Part shown: piece by piece, positions 6,033 through 19,103 of the stretch
Layout: every line of letters begins with the position of its first letter
Numbering within the stretch: position 1 is the first letter of the stretch
From: Acutalibacteraceae bacterium
GTDB taxonomy: Bacteria > Bacillota > Clostridia > Oscillospirales > Acutalibacteraceae
Length of the DNA stretch: 41,239 bases
Direction of reading: 5' to 3'
Assembly: GCA_045542295.1 (NCBI GenBank)
Contig: JAZQKT010000007.1
Span: 1-41,239, forward strand
The notes under the pieces: model-generated
Seen by the model: the letters and a program-made list of their open reading frames with translations, nothing else
The model's database searches: none
What the model was told of the DNA's origin: nothing
Program-made: the position numbers and the translations under genes

Positions 6033-7130
6033 TTAAATTGCGGCAAATTCACTTCCCTCACGTTTGAGGTATTTGCCGATCATTATAGCACTGCCCAGCA
6101 TACCAGCTAAAACGCCGATGCAGGCGAATACGATAAGCAACAGCCAAGCCATTTCGCCGTATTTCACAATATCGGTAGTGCCCAGGGTTTTAACGATTGT
6201 TTCGGTTGCTACACGGTAGCAGAAGTAAAGCAAGCCTTCTGAAATGAGGGCTGAAATAAGTCCGATAAGCACACCCTCAACAACAAAGGGGATACGTACA
6301 AAGGCATCAGTAGCACCTACGGCCTTCATAATGCTTATTTCAAGCTTACGGTTGTACATTGTAACACGTATTGTATTAGAAACAATTACAAGCGAAATAA
6401 TTATAAGAATTGCGATAATCCAAATACCTGCAACGGTTAAGCCTTTTTTAATGGCTGTAATTTTTTCGGCAAGACCGCTTTGAGAACGGATAACATCAAT
6501 ACCCTCAAGCTTTGAAATTTTCTCAACCGTTTGGTCGAAAAGCTCCATTTTCTCCATTTTAATTTTTGCGGCACCGGACATAGGGTTACCGTACTTTTCG
6601 TCAAGGAAGGTGAAATACTCCTCTTGACCTTCAAGCATGGATTCTTTTATGGTTTCAAGACCTTCCTCGCTTGTGATATAGGTCACTTCAACCACATTAT
6701 CAATTTCTCTTATTTTATCACAAAGCGCATCTGCTTCTTCACGGTTATGTATTACATAATCATCGGGACGGATTCCGTTTTCGTCAGCCTTGTCAGAAGC
6801 AGTACCCTCGGCTTCTTCGCCGTCCTTACTGTCGGCTTGGGAGTCGCCATCTTCACTCTCGGTGGTTGCTTTGTCAGAGGAAGCGGTATCTTCCGCTTTT
6901 TCTTCCGTGCCGTAAAGCGCCCAGTTATAGTCCTTCATATAGGCAATAACAACATTTTGATTCTCCAAATTGCCGATTGCCTTATTGATGTTTTGGGAAA
7001 TAAGAAGTGCAAGACCGATAATAACCATACAAGCAACAAGCACGCCGATAGAGGCTAATGTCATAAGACTGTTAGCCCAGGAATTTTTAACACCTTCGCC
7101 AATAAGGTATTTCACACTGCGTAGTTTCAT
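6033..7130 (-). CDS. ftsX: Cell-division ABC transporter permease FtsX (with an acidic insertion in the extracellular domain)
   Basis: TM1, an extracellular domain, then three C-terminal TM helices (FtsX-like permease). 4-nt overlap with the upstream ftsE. Confidence 0.85.
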   Translation of the reverse strand: MKLRSVKYLIGEGVKNSWANSLMTLASIGVLVACMVIIGLALLISQNINKAIGNLENQNVVIAYMKDYNWALYGTEEKAEDTASSDKATTESEDGDSQADSKDGEEAEGTASDKADENGIRPDDYVIHNREEADALCDKIREIDNVVEVTYITSEEGLETIKESMLEGQEEYFTFLDEKYGNPMSGAAKIKMEKMELFDQTVEKISKLEGIDVIRSQSGLAEKITAIKKGLTVAGIWIIAILIIISLVIVSNTIRVTMYNRKLEISIMKAVGATDAFVRIPFVVEGVLIGLISALISEGLLYFCYRVATETIVKTLGTTDIVKYGEMAWLLLIVFACIGVLAGMLGSAIMIGKYLKREGSEFAAI

Positions 7131-7852
7131 TGTGCATTACCTCCGGCATTATCTGCTACTATTCTACCGCCGTCAAGCATTATAACTCTGTGCTGAAATT
7201 CGCGCACAAGGTTATGGTCATGCGTGACCATCAAAACGGTGGTGCCTTGCTTGTTGATTTCTGTAAGCATCTCAACGATTTTGTAAGACATATTGGGGTC
7301 AACGTTACCCGTAGGCTCGTCCGCAATAATAAGGTTTGGGGAATTGATAAGCGCACGCGCAAGACCTACACGCTGTTGCTCACCGCCCGAAAGCTGTGAC
7401 GGCATTGAACGTGCCTTGTGGCCGAGACCCACTTTAGCCAATGCCTTTGAAACCTCTTTGCGGATATTTTTTTCCGAAGCGCCCACAACACGCATTGCAA
7501 AGGCAACATTCTGAAAAACGTTCATGTTGGGGATTAAACGGAAATCCTGGAATACAATGCCCATTGTTCTTCTGAATATGGGTACCTGCTTGCGTTTCAT
7601 TTCGGTAAGGTTAAAGCCGTTAACCAATATTTTGCCGGTGTTTGCTTTTTCCTCACGCATAATAAGCTTCATAAAGGTACTTTTACCTGCACCCGAAGAA
7701 CCAACCACAAAAACAAACTCGCCGTTGTTTATTGTAATGTTTACATCCTCTAAAGCGTGGGTACCGGTAAGATAAGTTTTGGAAACACTGCGAAACTCAA
7801 TAATAGGCTTCTGCGGTGTCAGAGTTTCGCCGGTTGTCAATACTTGCTCCAT
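7127..7852 (-). CDS. ftsE: Cell-division ATP-binding protein FtsE
   Basis: Walker [13 protein letters not shown] signature LSGGEQQR, Walker B LIIADEP. Followed by ftsX. Confidence 0.9.
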
Positions 7853-8944: not shown

Positions 8945-9154
8945 GGTTTAAAACACTTCCTTTAATATTTAGATAATTAGAATTAATTAAGTATACGCAT
9001 AAAAATTAACATAATACCACAAATTTTATTTTACACAATATTAAGTCAATTTGCAAGCAATAATATTTAAAAATTAAAAAAAGTTACAAATTAGTTACAA
9101 AACATGTCGTTTTTGTTTTGAATACTTTGGCTGATGACGAGTAAGAATTTATTT

Positions 9155-9195
9155 TTACAAAAACAAAAACCGTTCCGAAATTTTCGGAACGGTTT
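9155..9195 (-). terminator. Rho-independent terminator of the rpsF-ssb-rpsR operon
   Basis: AAACCGTTCCGAAA/TTTTCGGAACGGTTT hairpin, followed on the minus strand by TTTTTGTTTTTGT. Confidence 0.75.
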
Positions 9196-9211
9196 AACAT
9201 TAATCGTATAA

Positions 9212-9457
9212 TTAGTCGTTTACATAAGGAAGTAAAGCCATCTGACGTGCACGCTTGATAGCAGTGGTAAGCTCACGCTGATGAGCAGCGCAGGTACCGG
9301 TTGCACGGCGGGGAAGAATCTTTGCACGTTCGGAAATGAACTTGCGAAGACGGGCTACATCCTTATAGTCAATGCTTTCAACACGATCAACGCAGAAATG
9401 GCAAACCTTCTTGCGGGGTTTTTTGTGCATAGGTCTATCGTTTCTCTCGTTTTCCAT
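9212..9457 (-). CDS. rpsR: 30S ribosomal protein S18
   Basis: [63 protein letters not shown] is the canonical S18 sequence pattern. Confidence 0.95.
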
Positions 9458-9488
9458 TGTAAAAGCCTCCTTGTTTTAAAATAATTAA

Positions 9489-9914
9489 TTAGAACGGCAA
9501 ATCGTCGTCCGTAGCATCGCCCAAATCGGCGAAATCGTTAACATCAGCATTGCTGTAAGAAACGGGAGCGGCATCTCCTGCAGGAGCGGCGCCGTCACGT
9601 TTGGACTCAACAAACTGAACGTTATTTACAACTACCTCAAAAGCGGTACGGTTGTTACCGTTTTTATCCTGGTATCTTCTGGTCTGGATAGAGCCTTCAA
9701 TACCGATAAGACTGCCCTTTTTAAAGTATTTTGTGATAAATTCCGCAGATTGACGCCAAGCAACGATGTTGATAAAATCGGTTTGACGCTCTTCTCCGGA
9801 ACGGTAACGGCGGTCAACAGCAATGGAGAAGGTTGTGACGGATAAGCCGTTAGAAGTGGTTTTGAGTTCGGGGTCAGCTGTTAAGCGACCGGTTAAAACT
9901 ACTAAATTAAACAT
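9489..9914 (-). CDS. ssb: Single-stranded DNA-binding protein
   Basis: N-terminal OB fold (MFNLVVLTGRLTADPELK...), a Gly/Ala/Asp-rich linker and the canonical acidic tip DDDLPF. Lies between rpsF and rpsR. Confidence 0.95.
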   Translation of the reverse strand: MFNLVVLTGRLTADPELKTTSNGLSVTTFSIAVDRRYRSGEERQTDFINIVAWRQSAEFITKYFKKGSLIGIEGSIQTRRYQDKNGNNRTAFEVVVNNVQFVESKRDGAAPAGDAAPVSYSNADVNDFADLGDATDDDLPF

Positions 9915-9927
9915 CGTTTATCCTCCA

Positions 9928-10209
9928 TTACTTCTTGATTACCATAACGCGTAAAACGCCGTCGGTAATCTTTACGATACGCTCAAGCTCGGCGGGGAAA
10001 TTGGGCTCGCTTTCAAAATTGTAGAAAACGTAGTAACCCTCAGCCTCGTCATTGATAAGGTATGCAAGACGACGCTTGCCCCAATCATCAACGCTTTCAA
10101 TAGTACCGTTCTTTGCGATAAGGTCATTAATCTTTTCCTTTAATGCTGCGGTAGCTTCTTCGCCACCTGCTACTGAAAAGATAACGCCTGCCTCGTACTT
10201 ATTGGTCAT
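9928..10209 (-). CDS. rpsF: 30S ribosomal protein S6
   Basis: YEAGVIFS...DDWGKRRLAY.I pattern, ~93 aa, first gene of the rpsF-ssb-rpsR operon. Confidence 0.95.
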   Translation of the reverse strand: MTNKYEAGVIFSVAGGEEATAALKEKINDLIAKNGTIESVDDWGKRRLAYLINDEAEGYYVFYNFESEPNFPAELERIVKITDGVLRVMVIKK

Positions 10210-10325
10210 TCTCTTTGCACCTCCCTTTGGACTTTTGGCTTCGCTCGCTGTCGAAGCAAGGAGCTAATGGACATATTTTTCCATTAAGCAAACTGTATTA
10301 TAGCAACTTTTAAAACCCTTGTCAA
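10210..10325 (-). promoter_or_regulatory. Consensus sigma-70 promoter plus structured 5' leader of rpsF (possible S6:S18 autoregulatory leader)
   Basis: The minus strand reads TTGACA (10325-10320), 17-nt spacer, TATAAT (10302-10297). The ~85-nt leader contains the hairpins TAATGGA/TCCATTA and GCTTCG/CGAAGC just before the GGGAGG RBS. Confidence 0.6.
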
Positions 10326-10333
10326 CAAAATTA

Positions 10334-10361
10334 TTGATTTTTTTTGAAATTATTATATAAT
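10334..10361 (+). promoter_or_regulatory. Candidate promoter for coaX (divergent from the rpsF promoter)
   Basis: TTGATT (10334-10339), 16-nt spacer, TATAAT (10356-10361). Confidence 0.4.
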
Positions 10362-10397
10362 ATAGGATAGAAAGACAAAGCAGAAAGGAAGATTTTT

Positions 10398-11162
10398 ATG
10401 CTTCTTACGGTCGATATAGGTAACACGAATATAACATTAGGCGCTTATGACGGCGGCGTGCTGGCTTTTACTGCAAGACTTGCTACAGAGACCGCAAAAA
10501 CTGCCGATCAATATGCCGTAGAGCTTAAAAGCTTGCTTTCGCTTAATGACATCGAAAGCTTTGAAATAGAGGATTGTATTATTTCGTCTGTAGTTCCATT
10601 GGTTGGTAAAAGCGTAAGCTCGGCGGTGTCAAAACTTTGTCACATTGTTCCGCTTATGCTGGGACCGGGTGTTAAAACGGGACTTAATATAAAAATAGAT
10701 AATCCGGCACAGCTTGGTGCGGACCTTGTTGCAGGTGCAGTAGGAGCGCTTGATTCTTACACTATGCCCTGTGTAATAATAGATATGGGTACGGCCTCTA
10801 CCGTAAGCGTTTTGGACCGAAACGGTACATTTTTGGGCGGTGCCATTGCCGCAGGTGTAAGACTCACACTTAAAGCGCTTACTGAAAATACGGCACAGCT
10901 AACCTCAATTCCCATTGAAGCTCCAAGCTCTGTTATCGGCAGAAATACCATTGAATGTATGCAGTCGGGTCTGGTTTACGGAACTGCCGCAATGATTGAC
11001 GGTCTGCTTGAAAAAATTGAGGAGGAGCTTGGCGAAACACCCACAGTGGTAGCTACGGGCGGCCTTTCAAGAGAAATTATCACTCACTGTAAGAAGGATA
11101 TAATTTACAGCGAAAATCTGCTTTTGGATGGACTTCGTGCAATTTACGAAAAAAACAACTAA
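10398..11162 (+). CDS. coaX: Type III pantothenate kinase
   Basis: N-terminal MLLTVDIGNTNITLG actin-fold phosphate-1 motif. Length and the GGL...D pattern fit CoaX. Confidence 0.9.
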   Translation: MLLTVDIGNTNITLGAYDGGVLAFTARLATETAKTADQYAVELKSLLSLNDIESFEIEDCIISSVVPLVGKSVSSAVSKLCHIVPLMLGPGVKTGLNIKIDNPAQLGADLVAGAVGALDSYTMPCVIIDMGTASTVSVLDRNGTFLGGAIAAGVRLTLKALTENTAQLTSIPIEAPSSVIGRNTIECMQSGLVYGTAAMIDGLLEKIEEELGETPTVVATGGLSREIITHCKKDIIYSENLLLDGLRAIYEKNN

Positions 11163-11308
11163 CGGCAATAACCTGTGGCTTTTATTCTGAAAAGGTGGAA
11201 AAAACACGGAGCCGACAGTGATTTCCAACCACAAAACTGATAAGGGCTTTAGGCTTGCATATATTATTATGAGCTGTACCTTAAAGGACAGCATCGGAGG
11301 TAATTTAA

Positions 11309-11905
11309 ATGACAAATTCAGAAAAAAGAAAAGAACAGACAAAAAAATTGGTACTCGGTGCAGTAATGACTGCGTTGGTAATAATACTACAGTCGATTGC
11401 TAAATTTACTGCGTTTTTTGGACCTTTTTCAAGTGCAGTGGCATTAGTACCTATTGTAATCGGAGCAGCTATGTGCGGCACCGCAGTAGGCGCATGGCTG
11501 GGTTTTGTTTTTGGTGTTGTTGTATTAGCAACAGGTGATGCCGCATTGTTTTGGATGTTTGATATTCCCGGAACATTTATAACTGTACTTGCAAAGGGTG
11601 CGGCTTGTGGTTTATGTGCCGGTTTGGCATACAAGCTGTTGGAAAAATTCAACCGATTTGTTGCTGCTTATGCTGCCGCAATAGCCTGCCCTATCATTAA
11701 TACGGCAGTATTTTTGCTTGGTTGCTTTGTATTTTTTATGGACAGTGCAGACAAAATTGCGGCTCAATTAGGATTAAATGTTTCAGGAATGGCACTTTTC
11801 TGGACTCTTGCTATGGGGAATTTCCTTTTTGAGTTGGGAACAAGTATTGTTTTAAGCCCTGTAATAGTAAGAGTTTTAAGCATTGAAAAGAAAAGTAAAA
11901 TTTAA
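11309..11905 (+). CDS. Small multi-pass membrane protein resembling an ECF-transporter S (substrate-capture) component
   Basis: 198 aa, about six Gly/Ala-rich TM helices, basic N-terminus. A pantothenate substrate is only a guess from adjacency to coaX. Confidence 0.55.
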   Translation: MTNSEKRKEQTKKLVLGAVMTALVIILQSIAKFTAFFGPFSSAVALVPIVIGAAMCGTAVGAWLGFVFGVVVLATGDAALFWMFDIPGTFITVLAKGAACGLCAGLAYKLLEKFNRFVAAYAAAIACPIINTAVFLLGCFVFFMDSADKIAAQLGLNVSGMALFWTLAMGNFLFELGTSIVLSPVIVRVLSIEKKSKI

Positions 11906-11918
11906 CAGGGAGTAATAT

Positions 11919-12845
11919 ATGGCATTTTTGCATTTTTTGGAGAATTTAAGAAACCCCGTGTGCGATGCGTTTTTTTCTGTCGTTACGCATCTTGGTGAAG
12001 AAACCTTTTTTATTGTGTTTGGGCTTATCTTTTTTTGGTGCATTAACAAAAAAGAGGGCTATTATCTGCTGTCAATAGGCTTTATAGGTACGGTTTTAAA
12101 TCAGTTTTTAAAGCTTTTTTTCAGAGTGCCTCGCCCATGGGTTAAGGATAAAAGCTTCACCATTGTTGAGTCGGCAAGGGCAGAGGCTACAGGATATTCC
12201 TTCCCGAGCGGACATACCCAATCCTCGGTTGGAATTTTCGGAGGTATGGCACGCTGGAATAAAAATTTTGTCTTTAGAACAATTTGTATTTTGCTTTGTG
12301 TGCTGGTGCCTTTTTCAAGAATGTATCTCGGGGTACATACACCGGCAGATGTTTTGGTTTCTGTGGCTATAGGACTGGTTCTTATTTTCGGACTTTATCC
12401 GATTATCCACAAATGCTTTGAAAACATAAAGGCTATGCGGATTTTGCTTATAGTAATGGTTGCTTTGTCGGCAGGACTTTTAAGCTTTGTTTTGCTTTAT
12501 AATTTTCCTAAAGATGTTGACGCAAAGAATCTTGAAAGCGGAATCAAAAATGCCTATAAAATGCTTGGCTGTACCTTGGGTATATTTATTGCATTTGAAG
12601 TTGATAACAGGTTTATAAAATTTAAAACTGACGGCATATTTTCAGCACAAATTCTTAAATTGGCGCTTGGTGTAATTCCGATACTCGGTATAAAGGCAGG
12701 GCTTAAGGCTCCGCTTTATGCCCTTTTCGGCGGAAGCTTTTTGGCTGACGGTGTGCGCTATTTTCTGATAGTGGTTTTTGCCGGCTGTGTTTGGCCGTTG
12801 ACCTTTAAGTATTTTGCCAAAATAGGGGAAAAGCAGAGGCCATAA
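11919..12845 (+). CDS. PAP2-family (type 2 phosphatidic acid / undecaprenyl-PP-like) phosphatase with extra C-terminal TM helices
   Basis: The three PAP2 motifs: KLFFRVPRP, SFPSGHT, SRMYLGVHTPADV. Confidence 0.8.
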   Translation: MAFLHFLENLRNPVCDAFFSVVTHLGEETFFIVFGLIFFWCINKKEGYYLLSIGFIGTVLNQFLKLFFRVPRPWVKDKSFTIVESARAEATGYSFPSGHTQSSVGIFGGMARWNKNFVFRTICILLCVLVPFSRMYLGVHTPADVLVSVAIGLVLIFGLYPIIHKCFENIKAMRILLIVMVALSAGLLSFVLLYNFPKDVDAKNLESGIKNAYKMLGCTLGIFIAFEVDNRFIKFKTDGIFSAQILKLALGVIPILGIKAGLKAPLYALFGGSFLADGVRYFLIVVFAGCVWPLTFKYFAKIGEKQRP

Positions 12846-12847
12846 GT

Positions 12848-13135
12848 ATGACGGTTGATGAAATTTTAAAACCGATGATTGAAGAAGAATTAAAAAGATA
12901 TGAAGAACTCGGAAATAATATAAAACTTAAGTCTGTACGCTCTTTGCGACGGAGGTATACTGTTACGGCACTTATTGCTTTGGTTGTATTATTTCCGCTT
13001 CTTTTTATCACCATACCGGTGTACATTTATAAAATGAAAAGGCTTTCTGACAAAGCAGAGGTTATTTTGACATTGGCAAAGAAGTCCCCCGATAAGACGA
13101 TACCACAGCTTATTGCAGAGGAAATTGCCGAATAA
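12848..13135 (+). CDS. Hypothetical small membrane protein
   Basis: The ATG lies 2 nt after the PAP2 stop. One central TM segment (VTALIALVVLFPLLFITIPVYIY). No family recognised. Confidence 0.45.
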   Translation: MTVDEILKPMIEEELKRYEELGNNIKLKSVRSLRRRYTVTALIALVVLFPLLFITIPVYIYKMKRLSDKAEVILTLAKKSPDKTIPQLIAEEIAE

Positions 13136-13210
13136 AACATTAGTTGTTTGGCCAAATAGTGTTTAAGGGATCTTTAAAAATTTAGTTATAAATAATTCTT
13201 GGAGTTTGAA

Positions 13211-14959
13211 ATGAACAGATTTATTCATTTACTGTATGTTCCTACAATGAATTGCAATATGAGCTGTAAATATTGCTATTTGGGAGAAAATACGGTTGAG
13301 CTTAAAAGCGATAAGGGCTATTTGGAAACCCTTAAATTTGCTGTTGAAAAGTTCAAAGCGGAGGAGGTTATTCCGTTTAATATTTCTTTGCACGGTGGGG
13401 AGGTTACCACCCTTTCAAAGGAAAATTTCAGAGAAATTATAGAATACATAAGCAATTATTATGAGGAAAACGGTGAGCTTATCCGTGAAAACGGGTTTAA
13501 AGTTAATAAGCCACACATAAAAACAAATCTTTTTTGTCTTGACAGACACATTGAAACCCTTAAGGAATTTGATGTAAGCATAAGCGGCAGCTTGGATTTA
13601 CCCCTTTCGTTGCACGATGAATACCGTGTCACAAAGGGCGGCAAAGGAACGTTGGAGACAATACTTAAAAACATCCAAATGCTCTCTACGCTGCCTAATA
13701 GAAAAAAAGTATCGGCTACAATTTTTGAGGAGCATTTTAACAGATTAGATGAAATTGTAAGTGATATTCGTTTTTTGGCAGATAACACCTGCCTTAATAT
13801 GAATGATTTTAATTTTATGATAGGCTTTACACCTCAAACCGAGAGTGAGGTAAAGCTTACGGCTCTTTCCGAAAAAAACCAGGTTGCCTTATATGAGCGT
13901 ATGAAAAAAGAGTTTGCGGGCACCGATTTGGAGGAGGGGCTTCGTGGTGCTTGGTTTGCGGAATTCACGCCTGCATATTGCACAAATTGTGACAATTGCG
14001 GAGAAAAGTTTTTCTTGCTTGAAAAAAACGGTGATATTTATTCCTGCGTAAGAGGACAAGGTAATCCCGATTTTTATTACGGAAATATTTACCGTGATTC
14101 TGTTGAACAAATTTTTGGTACTGCCAAAGCAAAGATATTTTTAGCCCATAACCGACAGGGATTTACAGAGGAATGCGGAAATTGTGAGCATTTACATCTC
14201 TGCAAAACAGGCTGTCCATACGTTAAAACGATTTACGGCAGCAGTAAATCTTATACCTGCCGTTTGCAGAAAAAGATTTATGCGGACGGTGAATATGAGG
14301 CTATCCCCGAAAATTTTGCGTACCATTACCTTTTGAAAAATCATCCCGAAGAGGCTGAACAATACTTTAAAACAGAGTATGATGCAAACAGCCTGCCCGC
14401 ACTTATAGAGCGTGACCCTAAATTGCAGGCGGTTTATGACCCCGAAGCCTTTGTTTTGAGTGTTGACGGTGTTGAGCATAAGCTTCAGTCACAGCTTTTA
14501 AAGCGCACACGGGATTTCGTATTTATTGGCAACCAAAGCAGTATAAAGCTATATGTTAAGGAAGACACAATGGACGCTTTAAGCGATTATCCGATTAACA
14601 ATGCACTGTATATTCAACTGCTCAGCGGTGATACGGTGGTTTACGGTGATGAGCAACGTGAAAAGCAAGAGCATATTATGACACATTTGATTTATAAAAG
14701 AACGGTTGCGGCAGAAAAATCCGACAAAACGGGATATTACTGTGTTGATTTGAGCGATTTGCTTAAGATTTACGGTCCTCGGCTTTCCAAAGAAAAACCC
14801 AATAATTTGTTTTTCACTACAGCCGCACTGCGAGACTATCACTATTCAAAGCAAAAAAATAATGGTTTTTACCATATAAACGCATTGAATTTGCCTTTCC
14901 AAAACATTGAATTATTTTATTTTGATTTTAATAACCGAGAGGAGTTTTCTTATGATTAG
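13211..14959 (+). CDS. Radical SAM/SPASM-domain enzyme with a long uncharacterised C-terminal extension (rSAM-1)
   Basis: CX3CX2C at residues 15-22 (CNMSCKYC). GGE-type SAM motif (SLHGGEVT). Full SPASM Cys pattern: CGEKFFLLEKNGDIYSC (CX10GX4C), CGNCEHLHLCKTGC (CX2CX5CX3C), then YTC. The ATG at 13211 is preceded by GGAG; the ORF-track TTG at 13199 is less likely. Confidence 0.9.
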   Translation: MNRFIHLLYVPTMNCNMSCKYCYLGENTVELKSDKGYLETLKFAVEKFKAEEVIPFNISLHGGEVTTLSKENFREIIEYISNYYEENGELIRENGFKVNKPHIKTNLFCLDRHIETLKEFDVSISGSLDLPLSLHDEYRVTKGGKGTLETILKNIQMLSTLPNRKKVSATIFEEHFNRLDEIVSDIRFLADNTCLNMNDFNFMIGFTPQTESEVKLTALSEKNQVALYERMKKEFAGTDLEEGLRGAWFAEFTPAYCTNCDNCGEKFFLLEKNGDIYSCVRGQGNPDFYYGNIYRDSVEQIFGTAKAKIFLAHNRQGFTEECGNCEHLHLCKTGCPYVKTIYGSSKSYTCRLQKKIYADGEYEAIPENFAYHYLLKNHPEEAEQYFKTEYDANSLPALIERDPKLQAVYDPEAFVLSVDGVEHKLQSQLLKRTRDFVFIGNQSSIKLYVKEDTMDALSDYPINNALYIQLLSGDTVVYGDEQREKQEHIMTHLIYKRTVAAEKSDKTGYYCVDLSDLLKIYGPRLSKEKPNNLFFTTAALRDYHYSKQKNNGFYHINALNLPFQNIELFYFDFNNREEFSYD

Positions 14960-15329
14960 CGTTAAACCTACTACCTACAATGAGGCTTTGAGACTTTCAA
15001 GATGCTTTCAAATGCGGACCTATTCGCCGGAGATTACCGATGAGATTATAGAGTCAACTTATAATTTTGTGTCTGAAAATCCTGCAAATAAGGTTGGAAT
15101 GTCTAACGGAACTATTTATTTTGTAAATGCACAAGGCGAAAAAACAAAGGTTTATGCTGTATCAACAAGTGATACCTTTGACAGTCTGGTGCTTAGCGCA
15201 TCTCTGTTTAGAGTGGTAAATAAGAGTGTGGATAATGGCGGCTGCGGCTGCGGTTGTTCAAGCAATAACAACAACAATAATAACAATAACAATAATAACA
15301 ACAATAATAATAACAATAATAACGGTTAA
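14952..15329 (+). CDS. Candidate radical-SAM substrate (precursor peptide or small protein): ~100-aa N-terminal region + GGCGCGCSS + Asn20 + Gly
   Basis: The ATG at 14952 lies 7 nt after GAGGAG and overlaps the rSAM-1 stop by 8 nt. The C-terminus is ...VNKSVDNGGCGCGCSSNNNNNNNNNNNNNNNNNNNNG*. It is sandwiched between two SPASM enzymes. Confidence 0.65.
   Translation: MISVKPTTYNEALRLSRCFQMRTYSPEITDEIIESTYNFVSENPANKVGMSNGTIYFVNAQGEKTKVYAVSTSDTFDSLVLSASLFRVVNKSVDNGGCGCGCSSNNNNNNNNNNNNNNNNNNNNG
15264..15323 (+). repeat. Imperfect (AAY)20 trinucleotide tract encoding 20 consecutive Asn
   Basis: 11 AAT and 9 AAC codons interleaved irregularly (aat aac aac aac aat aat aac aat aac aat aat aac aac aat aat aat aac aat aat aac). 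Confidence 0.95.
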
Positions 15330-15333
15330 GCGT

Positions 15334-16050
15334 ATGAGAAACAGGATTTATCAAACTGTACACGTGTATAACGGCAATAGTTTAAGTGTGACTTATAAAT
15401 ATTTTATGATTGCTGTTATAATTGCAAGCATTGTACCTCTTACGCAGAAGCAGGAATTTGCTTTTTTAAAGGGTGTAGAGACAGTCTGCCTTGCTGTTTT
15501 CGGTCTTGATTTTGTTTTGCGTTGGATTACGGCTGACTATAAGTTTAAAAAGAAAAGCTGGGTTTCCTTTGTGAAATATCCCTTTAGGCTTATTTCGATT
15601 ATCGATTTGATGTCAATGTTTGCGCTCCTTGTGTCCGTAACTGATTGGTTTGATAATCTTAAGATGGCTGCCGCTTTATCGGTATTTAGAATCGTGCGTA
15701 TTTTCAGGTATTCCGAAAGTGTAAGAACTATTTTGGATATACTGAAAAAATCCAAAAAACCGCTTTTGGCGGTTGGCGGCTTGGCTCTTGGCTACATAAT
15801 GATTTCCGCTATTGTTGTATTTAATGTTGAGCCTGATTCCTTCAAAACCTTTTTTGATGCGATTTATTGGTCAACGGTTTCACTGACAACCGTAGGCTAT
15901 GGTGATATTTACCCCGTAACAGTATTGGGAAGAACGGTGGCAATGCTGTCATCCTTCTTTGGTATTGCTATTGTTGCGCTTCCTGCAGGTATTGTGACTG
16001 CAGGCTATATGAACGCAATTAAGAAAAAGAGCGAAGATGAGGAAGAATAA
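15334..16050 (+). CDS. 6-TM voltage-sensor-type potassium channel (Kv/KvAP-like), with no cytoplasmic ligand-binding domain
   Basis: Selectivity filter TTVGYGD (15886-15906). S4-like helix LSVFRIVRIFRYSESVR with Arg at every third position. Six hydrophobic segments plus a pore helix in 238 aa. The ATG at 15334 lies 4 nt after the preceding stop. No clear SD. Confidence 0.85.
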   Translation: MRNRIYQTVHVYNGNSLSVTYKYFMIAVIIASIVPLTQKQEFAFLKGVETVCLAVFGLDFVLRWITADYKFKKKSWVSFVKYPFRLISIIDLMSMFALLVSVTDWFDNLKMAAALSVFRIVRIFRYSESVRTILDILKKSKKPLLAVGGLALGYIMISAIVVFNVEPDSFKTFFDAIYWSTVSLTTVGYGDIYPVTVLGRTVAMLSSFFGIAIVALPAGIVTAGYMNAIKKKSEDEEE

Positions 16051-16053
16051 GCA

Positions 16054-17094
16054 ATGTCTTGTCAGGATAAAAACCGCCTTACGTTACAGTTTCATATTAC
16101 GGGGCGCTGTAATTTGCGCTGTAAGCACTGCTACCGCACGGAAGGTGATATAGAAACGCTTTCCTTTGATGATATAAAAGCTGTTATTGACAGTGTAAGG
16201 GAATTGCGCAAAAGCTATAATGCGGCGCACGGAATTAAAAAAAGAGCTCATATTAATTTGACAGGCGGAGAGCCTTTTTTTAGAGAGGATATTACCGATA
16301 TAATTAAATATATTGCAAAATATTCCAAAGAGCTTACTTATGCAGTTTTGACCAACGGTCCTTTTATTAATGATGAAATAATTGCTCTTTTAAAGGAAAC
16401 AAGGGTTTCGTTTGTACAGCTAAGTCTTGACGGCAAACGAAAAAGCCATGATTTTTTGCGGGCAAAGGGCGACTATAAGCGTGTTCTTAAAACCGCTCGC
16501 TTGTTAGAGTCTAACGGAATAAGAACACATATCAGCTTTACCGCAAACAGAAGCAATTATAAGGATATTCCCGCAGTGGCACGCGCCTGCAGAAGAAACG
16601 GAATAACCAAGCTTTGGTCTGATCGTTTAGTACCCATCGGCAACGCCAAAGAGCTTGAAGAGCTTAAAATAACCAAGGAGATATTCCCCGATTATGTAAA
16701 AATGCTTACCAAAGCAAAGGGGAATGTTTTTACAAGATTTTTTTATCCCAAAACACAGGTCACGCTTAATCGTGCACTTCAGTTTATCGATTCGGATGGT
16801 TCTGTCTATTCCTGCAGTGCAGGCAAAAGTCTTATTACTGTTGATGAGTTTGGCAGAATTATGCCCTGCAGAAGAATGCCGATTATTTGCGGCGATATTA
16901 AAACTGCCGATATTAGTGAGGTTTACTACGGCAGTGAGGTTTTTAGGCGCTTGAGAGACGAGCGTATACCTAAAGAATGCCTTAACTGTGCATATAATTG
17001 TTTTTGTGTAGGCGGTGCAAAATGCCAAAGCTTTGCCGAGTACGGTGACTTTTCTAAAGCAGACCCCGTCTGTGCTTTAAAAATGAAAATTTAA
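16054..17094 (+). CDS. Radical SAM/SPASM-domain enzyme (rSAM-2)
   Basis: CX3CX2C at residues 19-26 (CNLRCKHC). TGGEPF SAM motif. SPASM pattern: CSAGKSLITVDEFGRIMPC (CX12GX4C), CLNCAYNCFC...C, then DPVC. RBS GAGGAAG 8 nt upstream. Starts 3 nt after the channel stop. Confidence 0.9.
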   Translation: MSCQDKNRLTLQFHITGRCNLRCKHCYRTEGDIETLSFDDIKAVIDSVRELRKSYNAAHGIKKRAHINLTGGEPFFREDITDIIKYIAKYSKELTYAVLTNGPFINDEIIALLKETRVSFVQLSLDGKRKSHDFLRAKGDYKRVLKTARLLESNGIRTHISFTANRSNYKDIPAVARACRRNGITKLWSDRLVPIGNAKELEELKITKEIFPDYVKMLTKAKGNVFTRFFYPKTQVTLNRALQFIDSDGSVYSCSAGKSLITVDEFGRIMPCRRMPIICGDIKTADISEVYYGSEVFRRLRDERIPKECLNCAYNCFCVGGAKCQSFAEYGDFSKADPVCALKMKI

Positions 17095-17101
17095 ATAACG
17101 A

Positions 17102-17139
17102 ATCCCCCTATGGCGCGAAAATGCCGTAGGGGGATTTTT
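17102..17139 (+). terminator. Rho-independent terminator closing the rSAM/channel operon
   Basis: TCCCCCTATGGC-gcgaaaat-GCCGTAGGGGGA (12-bp stem with one G-U pair), followed by TTTTT. Confidence 0.8.
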
Positions 17140-17153
17140 GGGTATGGGTTTGG

Positions 17154-17558
17154 CTAAGGCTTGCACCTGTTGCAGGGTGTGTAACCGTCACTTAAAAGTT
17201 CTTCGCGATTATAGGTTATGTATTTGTTCGTTTCATTCATATTTTTAGCCGAGCCGCAATCGGACTTGTGAAACACCTTGCTTTTTATATTAGCATAATA
17301 TTTCACTTTTTCGGTCGGTTGAATATCAGTGCTTTGGGTTTGGGCAGTAACCTTATCTGCAGGGATAACCGAGCTGACAATCGAAGTGTCCGCACCTTTT
17401 GCGGTTTCGGTTTTGTAGCCGTTTACGGTACCGTCGGTCGGCATATTTATCGAGACCGATTTTCTTGAAGAAGTGTCGGTCTGTTTATTGCAAGCGCAAA
17501 CCGAAAGCGAAAATATCAGAATTAAAAATAAAGTTGACAGTCGTCTTAAATTTGTCAT
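17154..17558 (-). CDS. Putative lipoprotein with a C-terminal Cys-rich (H..C...C..C) motif
   Basis: Signal peptide/lipobox LILIFSLSVCAC. The C-terminus is KVFHKSDCGSAKNM...GYTPCNRCKP (putative small metal-binding module). The ATG at 17558 after AAAGGA is preferred to the TTG at 17579. Confidence 0.6.
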   Translation of the reverse strand: MTNLRRLSTLFLILIFSLSVCACNKQTDTSSRKSVSINMPTDGTVNGYKTETAKGADTSIVSSVIPADKVTAQTQSTDIQPTEKVKYYANIKSKVFHKSDCGSAKNMNETNKYITYNREELLSDGYTPCNRCKP

Positions 17559-17572
17559 AACTGTTCCTTTCT

Positions 17573-17815
17573 CTAACAAATTTCTTGATCCAAATTATCG
17601 AATTCGGGAGTAGAAAAGAATTCACCGATAGTAATATCTAATCCGTCACAAAACTTTTTGATAGTGGTAATTGAAACATCTCTGCGTGCAGAATTAAGCA
17701 TACTATAGGCGGTTGACGGGGTAACGCCCGAGCGGTTAGCCAGTTCATTTACCGTTATTTTCCTTTCTTCGCAAAGCTCTTCAAATCTGTTACACACGAC
17801 ATCCTTAACGCTCAT
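17573..17815 (-). CDS. XRE-family helix-turn-helix transcriptional regulator
   Basis: HTH ITVNELANRSGVTPSTAYSMLN. The ATG at 17815 lies 5 nt after AGGTGA; the ORF-track GTG at 17824 sits inside that RBS. Confidence 0.8.
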   Translation of the reverse strand: MSVKDVVCNRFEELCEERKITVNELANRSGVTPSTAYSMLNSARRDVSITTIKKFCDGLDITIGEFFSTPEFDNLDQEIC

Positions 17816-17855
17816 TTTCTTCACCTCTGTAAAAATTCTATGCTTTTATGCGCTG

Positions 17856-17876
17856 CTGCGTATACGCAGTTGCGTA
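17856..17876. promoter_or_regulatory. Candidate operator: perfect 14-bp palindrome plus an extra half-site upstream of the XRE gene
   Basis: CTGCGTA|TACGCAG (17856-17869), followed by TTGCGTA (17870-17876), about 40 nt upstream of the XRE start codon. Confidence 0.45.
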
Positions 17877-18131
17877 AATTTGGATAAAAATTCCAAATTG
17901 TGAATATAATTATGGGATTTTGAAAAGCTATTAAAGAACGAAGGCTTCTGAACTTAAAACGGGAATAAATGCTTTGTTTATATATTTTTTCAATAATTGT
18001 AGCATAAACACATTCAAAAGTTAAGAAAAACGCTTTTTTGAATGGGTGTAATTTCATAAAATTGGTTGAAAAAACAGCAATATTATGATATACTTATTAA
18101 GAATATATATTGTATAATTTAGGTGGTAATT

Positions 18132-19103
18132 TTGTTCGAGCAAACGGTTGATATTGAAAGAATTGAACAGATAGTAAATTTGTTCGGTAATTTTGATGAA
18201 AATATTAAGCGAATTGAAAAACGCTATGGGGTTTCAATTACCTCACACGGAAGCACCATTAAGGTTAAGGGTGATGCTACAGGGGTGGTTTCGGCTTGCA
18301 GAACGATTGAGGGACTTATTTCCATGATCAACAAGGGTGAGCAGATTACTGACCGTAATGTAGATTACGTTGCCTCACTTGTTGAGGACGGTGAGGACAG
18401 TAAAATAAGCGAGATTACTGATGCTAACTGTATCTGCATAACTGCAAAGGGTAAGCCGGTAAAGCCCAAAACTTTGGGTCAAAAGCAGTATGTTGAAGCT
18501 ATTCGTAACAACACAATAACCATTGGCGTAGGTCCTGCAGGAACAGGCAAAACCTATCTTGCAGTGGCACAGGCGGTAAGCGCTTTCAGAGCAAAGCAGG
18601 TAAACCGAATTATACTCACACGTCCTGCGGTTGAAGCGGGCGAAAAGCTTGGCTTTTTGCCGGGTGATTTACAGCAAAAGGTTGACCCGTATTTGAGACC
18701 GCTTTATGATGCTCTTTTTGATATGCTGGGAGCGGAAAATTTCCAGAAATGTCAGGAAAGGGGCGACATTGAGGTGGCTCCCTTGGCATATATGAGGGGA
18801 AGAACCCTTGATGACAGCTTTATAATTCTTGATGAAGCGCAAAATACTACAGCCGAGCAGATGAAGATGTTTTTAACCCGCCTGGGCTTTAATTCAAAGG
18901 CAGTTGTGACAGGTGATATTACACAGATAGATTTGCCTGACGGTAAAAAATCGGGATTAAAGGATGCTGTTAAAATCCTTAAAAATATTGATGATATTGC
19001 AATATCAAGGCTAACCGGTAAGGACGTTGTACGTCATAGGTTGGTTCAGGAAATAATAAAAGCTTATGAAAGAAGTGCTGAAAAAAATGAGCGTAAAGGT
19101 TAA
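18132..19103 (+). CDS. phoH: PhoH-family ATPase (PhoH/YbeZ)
   Basis: Walker A GPAGTGKTYLAV and Walker B FIILDEAQN. Followed by ybeY. The TTG at 18132 lies 5 nt after AGGTGG; the ORF-track GTG at 18123 lies within the RBS. Confidence 0.9.
   Translation: MFEQTVDIERIEQIVNLFGNFDENIKRIEKRYGVSITSHGSTIKVKGDATGVVSACRTIEGLISMINKGEQITDRNVDYVASLVEDGEDSKISEITDANCICITAKGKPVKPKTLGQKQYVEAIRNNTITIGVGPAGTGKTYLAVAQAVSAFRAKQVNRIILTRPAVEAGEKLGFLPGDLQQKVDPYLRPLYDALFDMLGAENFQKCQERGDIEVAPLAYMRGRTLDDSFIILDEAQNTTAEQMKMFLTRLGFNSKAVVTGDITQIDLPDGKKSGLKDAVKILKNIDDIAISRLTGKDVVRHRLVQEIIKAYERSAEKNERKG

Follow-up and report, generated by a model that had tools for sequence, protein, structure and literature searches.

Radical S-adenosylmethionine (rSAM) enzymes with a SPASM domain rank among the chief sources of new peptide chemistry, and their known substrates are short peptides guided by a leader or, in a few cases, specific proteins. 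The enzyme anSME modifies a folded protein in situ; its substrate is not a leader peptide. QhpD, which together with QhpC serves maturation of the gamma-subunit of quinohemoprotein amine dehydrogenase, is a SPASM rSAM enzyme that modifies a small protein kept in a larger complex, and no natural product is released. The synthases of sacti- and ranthipeptides (CteB, PapB, NxxcB) are encoded beside Cys-containing substrates, and the repeat systems described by Haft (ACGX, TIGR04340; CXXX, TIGR04115; and the Cys-every-fifth type, CefB) combine a SPASM enzyme with a periodic Cys repeat. Proteusins (polytheonamide, PoyD) have a long N-terminal region, and a single rSAM enzyme iteratively modifies their Asn-rich core; PoyD-type epimerases are not SPASM enzymes. 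Here we analyze a 41,239-nt stretch of DNA from an Acutalibacteraceae bacterium (the window; positions 1 to 41,239 of contig JAZQKT010000007.1, assembly GCA_045542295.1). It encodes a 125-aa protein that ends in a run of 20 Asn and whose gene is flanked by those for two rSAM/SPASM enzymes, rSAM-1 and rSAM-2 (Table 1). In the family to which it belongs, the candidate substrate is a homopolymer of 8 to 20 Asn carried on a folded domain. Sequence comparison and analogy indicate that this poly-Asn protein is very probably the substrate of the flanking enzymes. The reading that we favor, with a probability of roughly 0.6, is that of a membrane-docked small protein with two independently modified tail modules, each read by its own SPASM enzyme that lacks the recognition element (RRE) for peptides that are made by ribosomes and modified after translation (RiPPs).

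As we read it, the system works like other SPASM-dependent maturation of peptides or proteins; its substrate logic is unprecedented, and the chemistry, too, has a substantial chance of being new. By analogy, the closest functional counterparts would be anSME and QhpD, with their modification of proteins in situ, and, for the module assigned to rSAM-2, Haft's Cys-repeat systems. Within incomplete coverage of the literature, we found no description of a poly-Asn/rSAM system or of tails of the (Cys-Gly-Gly)n type discussed below, and an earlier description is possible. Two reviews or compendia (PMC9389541; PMC10288494) contain no mention of such a system.

rSAM-1 consists of an anSME-like core, a full SPASM motif and an extra, highly conserved C-terminal domain of ~220 aa. 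In addition to the CX3CX2C motif it has nine further conserved Cys, apparently a sufficient number to ligate two auxiliary clusters fully, which is also the case in anSME. Foldseek comparison of the rSAM-1 model (pLDDT, the predicted local distance difference test, 84) gave anSME (PDB 4k37) as the best match (E = 1e-13), followed by CteB, the ChlB-ChlA complex and SkfB; a sequence search against the PDB gave no match. NCBIfam matches are far below their cutoffs: DynA scores 102 bits (cutoff 450), anSME (TIGR03942) 99 bits (349) and TIGR03906, the QhpD model, 70 bits. Unlike anSME, rSAM-1 carries the C-terminal domain, the C/S-x-P/A-x-R motif is absent from the poly-Asn tail and no sulfatase gene is nearby. 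Unlike QhpD, it has no dehydrogenase subunits beside it. Its putative substrate has a homopolymeric tail, and the partners are a membrane/leucine-rich repeat (LRR) protein and, in the window's subclade, a K+ channel. Nothing in Pfam or NCBIfam matches the C-terminal domain, for which a profile search against the PDB gave only a spurious hit (E = 0.05). The possibility that this domain is a paralogue of the N-terminal domain (N-domain) of the poly-Asn protein was discarded (hhalign probability 0.1%). A known defence system was also considered and dropped, as a PADLOC scan of the poly-Asn open reading frame (ORF), of a neighbouring small membrane protein (orf95) and of the C-terminal domain of rSAM-1 gave only generic viperin-like rSAM similarity.

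The nearest solved structure to rSAM-2 by sequence is CteB (5wgg, E = 3.6e-15). Its NCBIfam matches (TIGR04053, ACGX and AhbD) are all below cutoff, with 129.5 bits against a cutoff of 400 for ACGX. PapB-family hidden Markov models (HMMs) match both enzymes, again below cutoff. Neither has a Pfam match to PqqD/RRE, a feature shared with anSME in the case of rSAM-1, and in both the CX3CX2C motif starts at residue ~15-19. As in sacti- and ranthipeptide clusters, a SPASM enzyme stands beside a Cys-containing substrate (three Cys in the tail), and NxxcB offers a precedent for a Cys-to-Asn link. This locus differs from them in its sub-cutoff HMM scores, in the absence of an RRE, of a short unstructured leader and of a protease or exporter, and in that the Cys motif is dispensable in most members of the poly-Asn family. 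Compared with Haft's systems, the repeat is C-G(-G) or C-S-S rather than A-C-G-X, its period is 2-3 residues rather than 4-5, and it lies at the C-terminus of membrane proteins of 400-500 aa or of the 125-aa protein, not in short peptides.

The Asn tail and its linkage to rSAM-1

The poly-Asn gene is conserved, strongly non-random and genuine. A ribosome-binding site (RBS; GAGGAG, 14939-14944) and a 7-nt spacer (ttttctt) precede the ATG at 14952, and the start overlaps the end of the rSAM-1 gene (stop TAG, 14957-14959) by 8 nt. The Asn tract is encoded by 11 AAT and 9 AAC codons that are irregularly interleaved. The chance expectation for an N20 run in the window (41% GC, 4.8% Asn) is ~6e-23, and all other homopolymers in any frame of the window are of at most five residues. 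We identified no Pfam family for the ORF and no NCBIfam match at E <= 0.01.

To place the gene in its family, we rely on related loci that are all contigs from metagenomes or metagenome-assembled genomes (MAGs), with ORF calls that are partly our own. A scan of public metagenome contigs (records including human gut) returned 488 stretches that encode rSAM-1 relatives. rSAM-1 itself forms more than 120 clusters at >=60% identity, all unnamed or labelled 'radical SAM protein'. An rSAM-1 orthologue (57-81% identity) is present in 92 loci, and in 90 of these a gene for a poly-Asn-tailed protein of ~120 aa lies immediately downstream; the other two have no sequence downstream or only a partial rSAM-1 match. 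An LRR_5 gene is found upstream in 87 of the 92, and a stop/start overlap of 4 or 8 nt between rSAM-1 and the poly-Asn gene in 38 of 67 loci. This near one-to-one link of a homopolymer tail with a very conserved, uncharacterised 580-aa enzyme makes it a candidate new substrate class. The system is abundant yet unannotated in gut Clostridia, and its proteins could be annotated as a defined system.

All 78 unique downstream partners of rSAM-1 have an Asn run, of N8 to N20, with a mode of 12-15 and the window's N20 as the longest. The four residues before the run are GSSS, GGSS, GSSG or GCSS. Ser is nearly universal two residues before the run, which is followed by R (30), G (22), nothing (14), S (6), H (4) or A (2). 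The 15 close (word-index) homologues all end in a Cys-Gly/Ser motif, N6-11 and G. Altogether, the 78 tails use 626 AAT and 400 AAC codons, interleaved, and the longest run of one codon is five. The family-wide conserved positions are those of the tail (G101, S103, N105-114) and some in the two N-terminal helices. Most tails contain no Cys: in ~77 loci examined, rSAM-1 and the poly-Asn gene occur without a Cys-x-Cys motif and without rSAM-2.

An earlier reading of the DNA made without database searches (the sequence-only reading) had described the ORF, its RBS, the 8-nt overlap, the C-terminus and the codon counts just as we find them. It had also proposed that interleaved codons argue for maintenance at the protein level, and this is borne out by orthologues of 30-67% identity, all of which retain the run in mixed codons. 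Among the orthologues, whose alignment it had called for, the Asn tract is conserved with variable length and the CGCGC-type motif occurs only in the nearest subclade. By these comparisons the Asn tail is a feature maintained at the protein level. We give practically no weight to the view that the tract is an artefact or a neutral repeat expansion, produced by slippage or faulty assembly in an ORF without function. Although the window's run is the longest in the family and differences of 1-3 Asn among close relatives show that indels do occur in the tract, the interleaved codons (same-codon runs <=5 in the 78 genes), conservation over hundreds of loci from independent assemblies, and the RBS and gene overlap effectively refute it.

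Near-identical poly-Asn proteins from different human-gut samples (L052-L061, L071-L090) differ only by 1-3 Asn (N9 to N12), which indicates that the tract is length-labile but bounded. The idea that the tract is a queuosine-dependent translational sensor was dropped, since nothing links such a sensor to SPASM enzymes.

rSAM-1 remains 57-81% identical across loci where the N-domain drops to ~30%. Thus the high conservation of the enzyme matches the invariant tail and not the variable domain, and the one tail-less homologue whose gene context is known (L008, below) has no such enzyme. On this basis, and by inference from linkage, we assign the Ser-Ser-Asn(n) module to rSAM-1 as its probable substrate. 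It is unlikely, in our estimate, that the tract is unmodified and selected as a low-complexity element, for example as a tether that is flexible and polar, as an oligomerisation tag of the polar-zipper kind or as a length spacer. rSAM-1 would then act on the Ser/Gly linker only, on the N-domain, on the LRR/orf95 protein or on a small molecule. Such roles fit the spacer-like tolerance seen in run length (8-20), in the terminal residue and in the interruption of some runs by K, H or T. An enzyme structurally closest to anSME, a Ser/Cys oxidase, might also be expected to target the nearly universal Ser before the run. However, Asn is retained strictly, without any change to Gln, Ser or Gly, over >=10 consecutive positions while the folded domain has diverged to ~30% identity. 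A spacer would hardly account for so near-perfect a link with a single, very conserved enzyme, and the tail-less homologue comes without that enzyme.

For the chemistry of rSAM-1, single-residue modification seems likelier than a defined cross-link, because the target is a homopolymer without a fixed partner residue and neither Cys nor aromatic residues are universal in the linker. By analogy, one option would be hydrogen abstraction at C-alpha or C-beta of Asn, leading to epimerisation or two-electron oxidation; another would be an anSME-like oxidation of the near-invariant Ser before the run. The rSAM enzyme NxxcB forms a thioether between Cys and C-beta of Asn (PMC9389541), and dynobactin has a Trp-Asn link (PMC10288494). 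These precedents indicate that rSAM enzymes can attack C-beta of Asn. If chemistry on Asn proves to be new, it would add a type of modification and a usable, tail-directed and RRE-independent recognition rule.

The Cys-Gly module and rSAM-2

The Cys-x(1,2)-Cys motif is confined to the Acutalibacteraceae-type subclade nearest the window, and rSAM-2 accompanies it in 7 of 8 distinct loci of the Cys type and occurs in none of ~77 Cys-less loci. The motif, the K+ channel gene and rSAM-2 are found together in the window, L001, L002, L009/L010 and L099/L100. L097/L098 have the motif and rSAM-2 and lack the channel, and L095/L096 have the motif and the channel and lack rSAM-2. In L007, the tail of which ends ...GGYSS-N16-G, only the channel is present, and all three are missing from L006 and about 75 other loci.

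The rSAM-2 family comprises at least 120 clusters at 58-66% identity, mostly outside poly-Asn cassettes. Several orthologues are encoded next to membrane proteins with long Cys-rich tails. In L101 (2771-6997), three paralogous proteins of 401-512 aa with multiple transmembrane segments are encoded directly upstream of the orthologue, and their tails end ...SSGGGCSGCSSCSS...CGGCGGCGD or ...GGCGCGGCGG(CGG)nCGD. A 492-aa membrane protein encoded right after the orthologue in L103 (4846-6324) ends ...SSSDSGCSGCSSCGGCGG...CGD. In L104-L106, a 409-aa membrane protein (L104:5769-6998) that ends ...TGGSCSSCGCGG(CGG)nCGD is encoded directly upstream of an orthologue with 66% identity to rSAM-2 of the window. 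The form of the tail across these contexts (L101, L103, L104-106; proteins of 401-512 aa) is ...GCSGCSSCGGCGG(CGG)nCGD. Such tails consist of (Cys-Gly-Gly)n or (Cys-Ser-Ser)n in long repeats, close with CGD and contain no Asn. Neither these membrane proteins (no Pfam or NCBIfam family) nor rSAM-2 belongs to a curated family.

The (CGG)n tails start like the linkers of the window's clade (S-S-D-S-G-C-[GS]-(G)-C...), and rSAM-2 of the window is 62-66% identical to the (CGG)n-linked orthologues versus 58-61% to the copies in other poly-Asn cassettes. Thus, since rSAM-2 orthologues of comparable identity stand beside Asn-free tails with a similar start, the tail in the window is, as judged from sequence, a hybrid of separable Cys-Gly and Asn modules, each with its own SPASM enzyme. 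Two modules with an enzyme each can be tested one enzyme against one module. The (CGG)n-tailed membrane proteins and rSAM-2 look like a second undescribed tail-modification system, which we predict to be likewise unannotated. The most economical guess for rSAM-2, by analogy, is CteB-like thioether formation within the Cys-Gly repeat. A 470-aa protein encoded in L002 was considered as an rSAM-2 substrate and dropped, as it has no Cys tail.

The sequence-only reading had favored a view of the protein as a precursor peptide, with a leader-like region of ~100 aa, a double-glycine cleavage site before the first Cys, and Cys donors and an Asn acceptor tract that form one unit. In its full form this is a classical RiPP, in which residues 1-97 would be a leader cut after Gly-Gly and CGCGCSS-N20-G would be secreted with thioethers from Cys to Asn, made by one or both rSAM enzymes. 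The two SPASM enzymes that flank the gene, the relationship of rSAM-2 to the thioether synthase CteB, the Cys-to-Asn beta-thioethers made by NxxcB (PMC9389541) and the constant position of the last Cys, always three residues before the first Asn in Cys-type tails, would all suit such a pathway. We nevertheless regard it as improbable, on several grounds. The Gly-Gly pair is not conserved, and in orthologues the two residues ahead of the first Cys are mostly S-G. Neither the window nor the conserved gene content of about 100 related loci includes a C39 peptidase, another protease or an exporter, and the sequence-only reading was itself correct that the window has no C39 peptidase/ABC gene. An RRE is absent from both enzymes. 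The presumed leader is a high-confidence fold that also occurs tail-less and fused to membrane modules. Most poly-Asn tails of the family lack Cys, and rSAM-2 orthologues pair with Asn-free Cys-Gly tails.

Consequently, the proposed unit of Cys donors and Asn acceptors comes apart: ~77 loci have the Asn run without Cys or rSAM-2, and the (CGG)n tails lack Asn. As the two modules are separable, a Cys-to-Asn staple is not needed to explain either of them, and it is conceivable for the hybrid tail of the window. The suggested likenesses to described RiPP families are also not supported. For SCIFF, the ORF has no NCBIfam or Pfam match and scores against the ScfB-related model are 44-68 bits (cutoff 855). 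For proteusins, there is no match either, including none to an NHLP/Nif11 leader; methyltransferases and a protease are absent, and the tail is a pure homopolymer. The sequence-only reading had offered a small folded protein with a tail modified in situ as its alternative, and this is the version that sequence comparison and structure prediction favor.

The folded N-domain, its probable membrane partner and the proposed function

AlphaFold2 (AF2) prediction from a 16-sequence alignment placed two helices and a five-stranded sheet in residues 1-92 (pLDDT 91-97); tail residues 95-125 have values of <50 and are predicted to be disordered. By this model, the N-terminal ~92 residues are a folded domain and not a leader. 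Foldseek searches with the N-domain model found nothing significant in the PDB (best E = 0.14, sliding-clamp subdomains) or in BFVD (best E = 0.07). An exhaustive profile search with the N-domain alone, over 1.84 billion representatives, returned 121 representatives at the 50%-identity level. Most are of ~112-125 aa and have a G/S(/D)-rich linker, N9-13 and a final G, A or S; a few have no Asn tail. Conserved positions of the domain are P6, T8, Y9, E11, C18, Y24, Y37 and F39.

The beta-strand part of the N-domain (residues ~45-85) weakly resembles DUF5050 (E = 0.007). Very large proteins (P0164, P0168, P0181, P0187, P0201; up to 7433 aa) contain 5-21 tandem repeats that match the same part. 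These matches suggest that it derives from a propeller-blade-like repeat.

Several arrangements place the N-domain beside orf95, a small membrane-hairpin protein without a Pfam or NCBIfam family. In a Lachnospiraceae MAG (L008:7655-8315), a tail-less copy of the N-domain directly follows an orf95 homologue, and no rSAM gene is nearby. In P0143, a single protein of 226 aa, the orf95 module and a tail-less N-domain form a Rosetta-stone fusion, and in P0179 the N-domain is followed by transmembrane segments. orf95 homologues are encoded just upstream in the cassettes of L002, L007, L009, L010, L096 and L099. In most loci the module precedes a BspA-type LRR_5 protein or is fused to its N-terminus (the latter in L006, L011, L013, L014 and L097). 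We take the LRR part to be extracellular because standalone LRR proteins have a lipoprotein-type signal sequence. Thus, we infer that the N-domain docks on cytoplasmic parts of the orf95 membrane module.

On the reading that we favor, the product of the poly-Asn ORF would be a cytoplasmic, membrane-docked protein and not a leader-plus-core peptide. Its folded N-domain would dock on orf95, which in most relatives is fused to, or precedes, the extracellular BspA-type LRR protein. The Ser-Ser-Asn(n)-Gly module would be the family-defining substrate of rSAM-1, which may remove hydrogen atoms from the tail, at the Asn residues or at the near-invariant Ser that comes just ahead of the run. The outcome could be epimerisation or an anSME-type two-electron oxidation, possibly repeated along the tract. 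CGCGC would be a short graft of a (Cys-Gly-Gly)n tail that arrived with its enzyme, rSAM-2, by which it is presumably modified. The modified product most likely stays on the protein, because no protease or exporter family recurs in the rSAM-1 cassettes of about 100 related loci. The tail would then remain attached and act at the membrane beside the LRR/orf95 module; in the window's subclade we speculate that it might act on the co-transcribed K+ channel.

A more far-reaching version is tentative, and we hold it to be somewhat less probable than its opposite. Here rSAM-1 would modify the Asn-homopolymer tail iteratively, by a type of modification not known before, on a membrane-docked protein within a transmembrane LRR-receptor complex, and this, together with rSAM-2 and the (CGG)n tails, would represent a general logic of homorepeat tails and dedicated RRE-less SPASM enzymes in gut Clostridia. 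If true, this logic would build protein-borne modified polymers from modules that can be combined on one tail, as in the window. The LRR association, and the channel in the subclade, provide hypotheses on membrane signalling or channel regulation.

Several observations weigh against the membrane-docked, two-module reading. The case for the tail as substrate is made from gene adjacency and by an analogy to other SPASM maturases. Neither the residue that follows the Asn run (R, G, none, S, H, A) nor, even among close relatives, the run length is constant, and this leaves some probability to the role of an unmodified spacer. One Cys-type locus, L095/L096 (P0003), has no adjacent rSAM-2, an rSAM-2 orthologue in L102 has no obvious Cys-tailed neighbour, and the link of rSAM-2 to (CGG)n tails is seen in only three independent contexts. 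Docking of the N-domain on orf95 is argued from co-occurrence and from one fused metagenome sequence, which may be an artefact of gene calling or assembly. Folded leaders are known among RiPPs (NHLP/Nif11), so that a folded N-domain by itself leaves room for later cleavage. Finally, the window has no LRR gene, a gene otherwise nearly universal in related loci, and no LRR homologue was identified anywhere in it.

Gene neighbourhood in the window

The genes from the start of rSAM-1 to the stop of rSAM-2 overlap or are separated by at most 4 nt (3-4 nt around the channel gene), and orf95 ends 75 nt before rSAM-1 (Table 1). Alignment of orthologues identifies the ATG at 13211 as the true start of rSAM-1. 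Counts from a promoter and terminator scan of 10000-18300 were at the level of shuffled sequence, so the scan is of no help in defining the operon.

Table 1. Features of the poly-Asn cassette, with positions in the window.
Feature	Position	Strand	Remarks
orf95, 95-aa small membrane-hairpin protein	12848-13135	+	hydrophobic hairpin
rSAM-1, 582-aa radical SAM/SPASM enzyme	13211-14959	+	Pfam Radical_SAM, Fer4_12, SPASM
Poly-Asn ORF	14952-15329	+	125 aa; C-terminus ...FRVVN-KSVDNGG-CGCGC-SS-N20-G-stop
Folded N-domain, residues 1-92 of the poly-Asn protein	14952-15227	+	AF2 and conservation
Disordered linker KSVDNGG, CGCGC (15243-15257) and SS (15258-15263)	15228-15263	+	CGCGC is the proposed rSAM-2 target module
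Asn20-Gly-stop	15264-15329	+	proposed rSAM-1 target module
Kv-type voltage-gated K+ channel, 238 aa	15334-16050	+	Pfam Ion_trans, Ion_trans_2; between poly-Asn gene and rSAM-2
rSAM-2, 346-aa radical SAM/SPASM enzyme	16054-17094	+	Pfam Radical_SAM, SPASM

The channel has the hallmarks of the Kv superfamily, including an S4 segment with Arg repeats (FRIVRIFRYSESVR) and a TTVGYGD filter (Ion_trans, 88.5 bits), and its relatives in the PDB are Kv7, Kv2 and Kv1 channels (E ~ 1e-21). It is encoded at the equivalent position in L001, L002, L007, L009/L010, L096 and L099. It is missing from ~77 other loci, including a large clade mostly from human-gut contigs. From this distribution, the channel appears as a subclade-specific accessory gene. 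A different gene, for a 337-aa zinc-ribbon membrane protein, follows the poly-Asn gene in 56 of the 92 loci, in a clade largely of human-gut contigs, and is not present in the window. This protein (e.g., L027:8119-9132) has two zinc ribbons that flank transmembrane segments and is the fourth conserved gene of its clade.

Several cassettes of the window's subclade adjoin genes for zinc-ribbon Ser/Thr kinases, for a PP2C phosphatase and for an FHA-ABC protein (L001:3211-4422; L096:1-4029 and 8977-11151; L099:3530-5752). Such neighbours may point to signalling as a context of the Ser-rich tails. In L006 (4349-6892), a cassette without Cys or channel, a 131-aa ORF and a gene for a heavy-metal P-type ATPase with an HMA domain come after the poly-Asn gene.

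Upstream, a gene for a PAP2-family phosphatase (11919-12845) ends 3 nt before orf95 and takes the place that the BspA-type LRR gene has in related loci. It was considered as a member of the cassette and dropped, as it is found in no related locus. We did not identify a C39 peptidase, another leader protease or a peptide-export ABC transporter in the window; its sole ABC pair (6033-7852) is of the FtsE/FtsX type and lies beside an M23/PcsB hydrolase. The remaining genes are housekeeping genes, including those for CoaX, PhoH, YbeY, Era, RecO, MutS2 and FtsEX. Also encoded, on the reverse strand (1908-2909, -), is a GGGtGRT-family protein (PF14057, 641 bits), which is conserved, of uncharacterised function and unrelated to the poly-Asn cassette.

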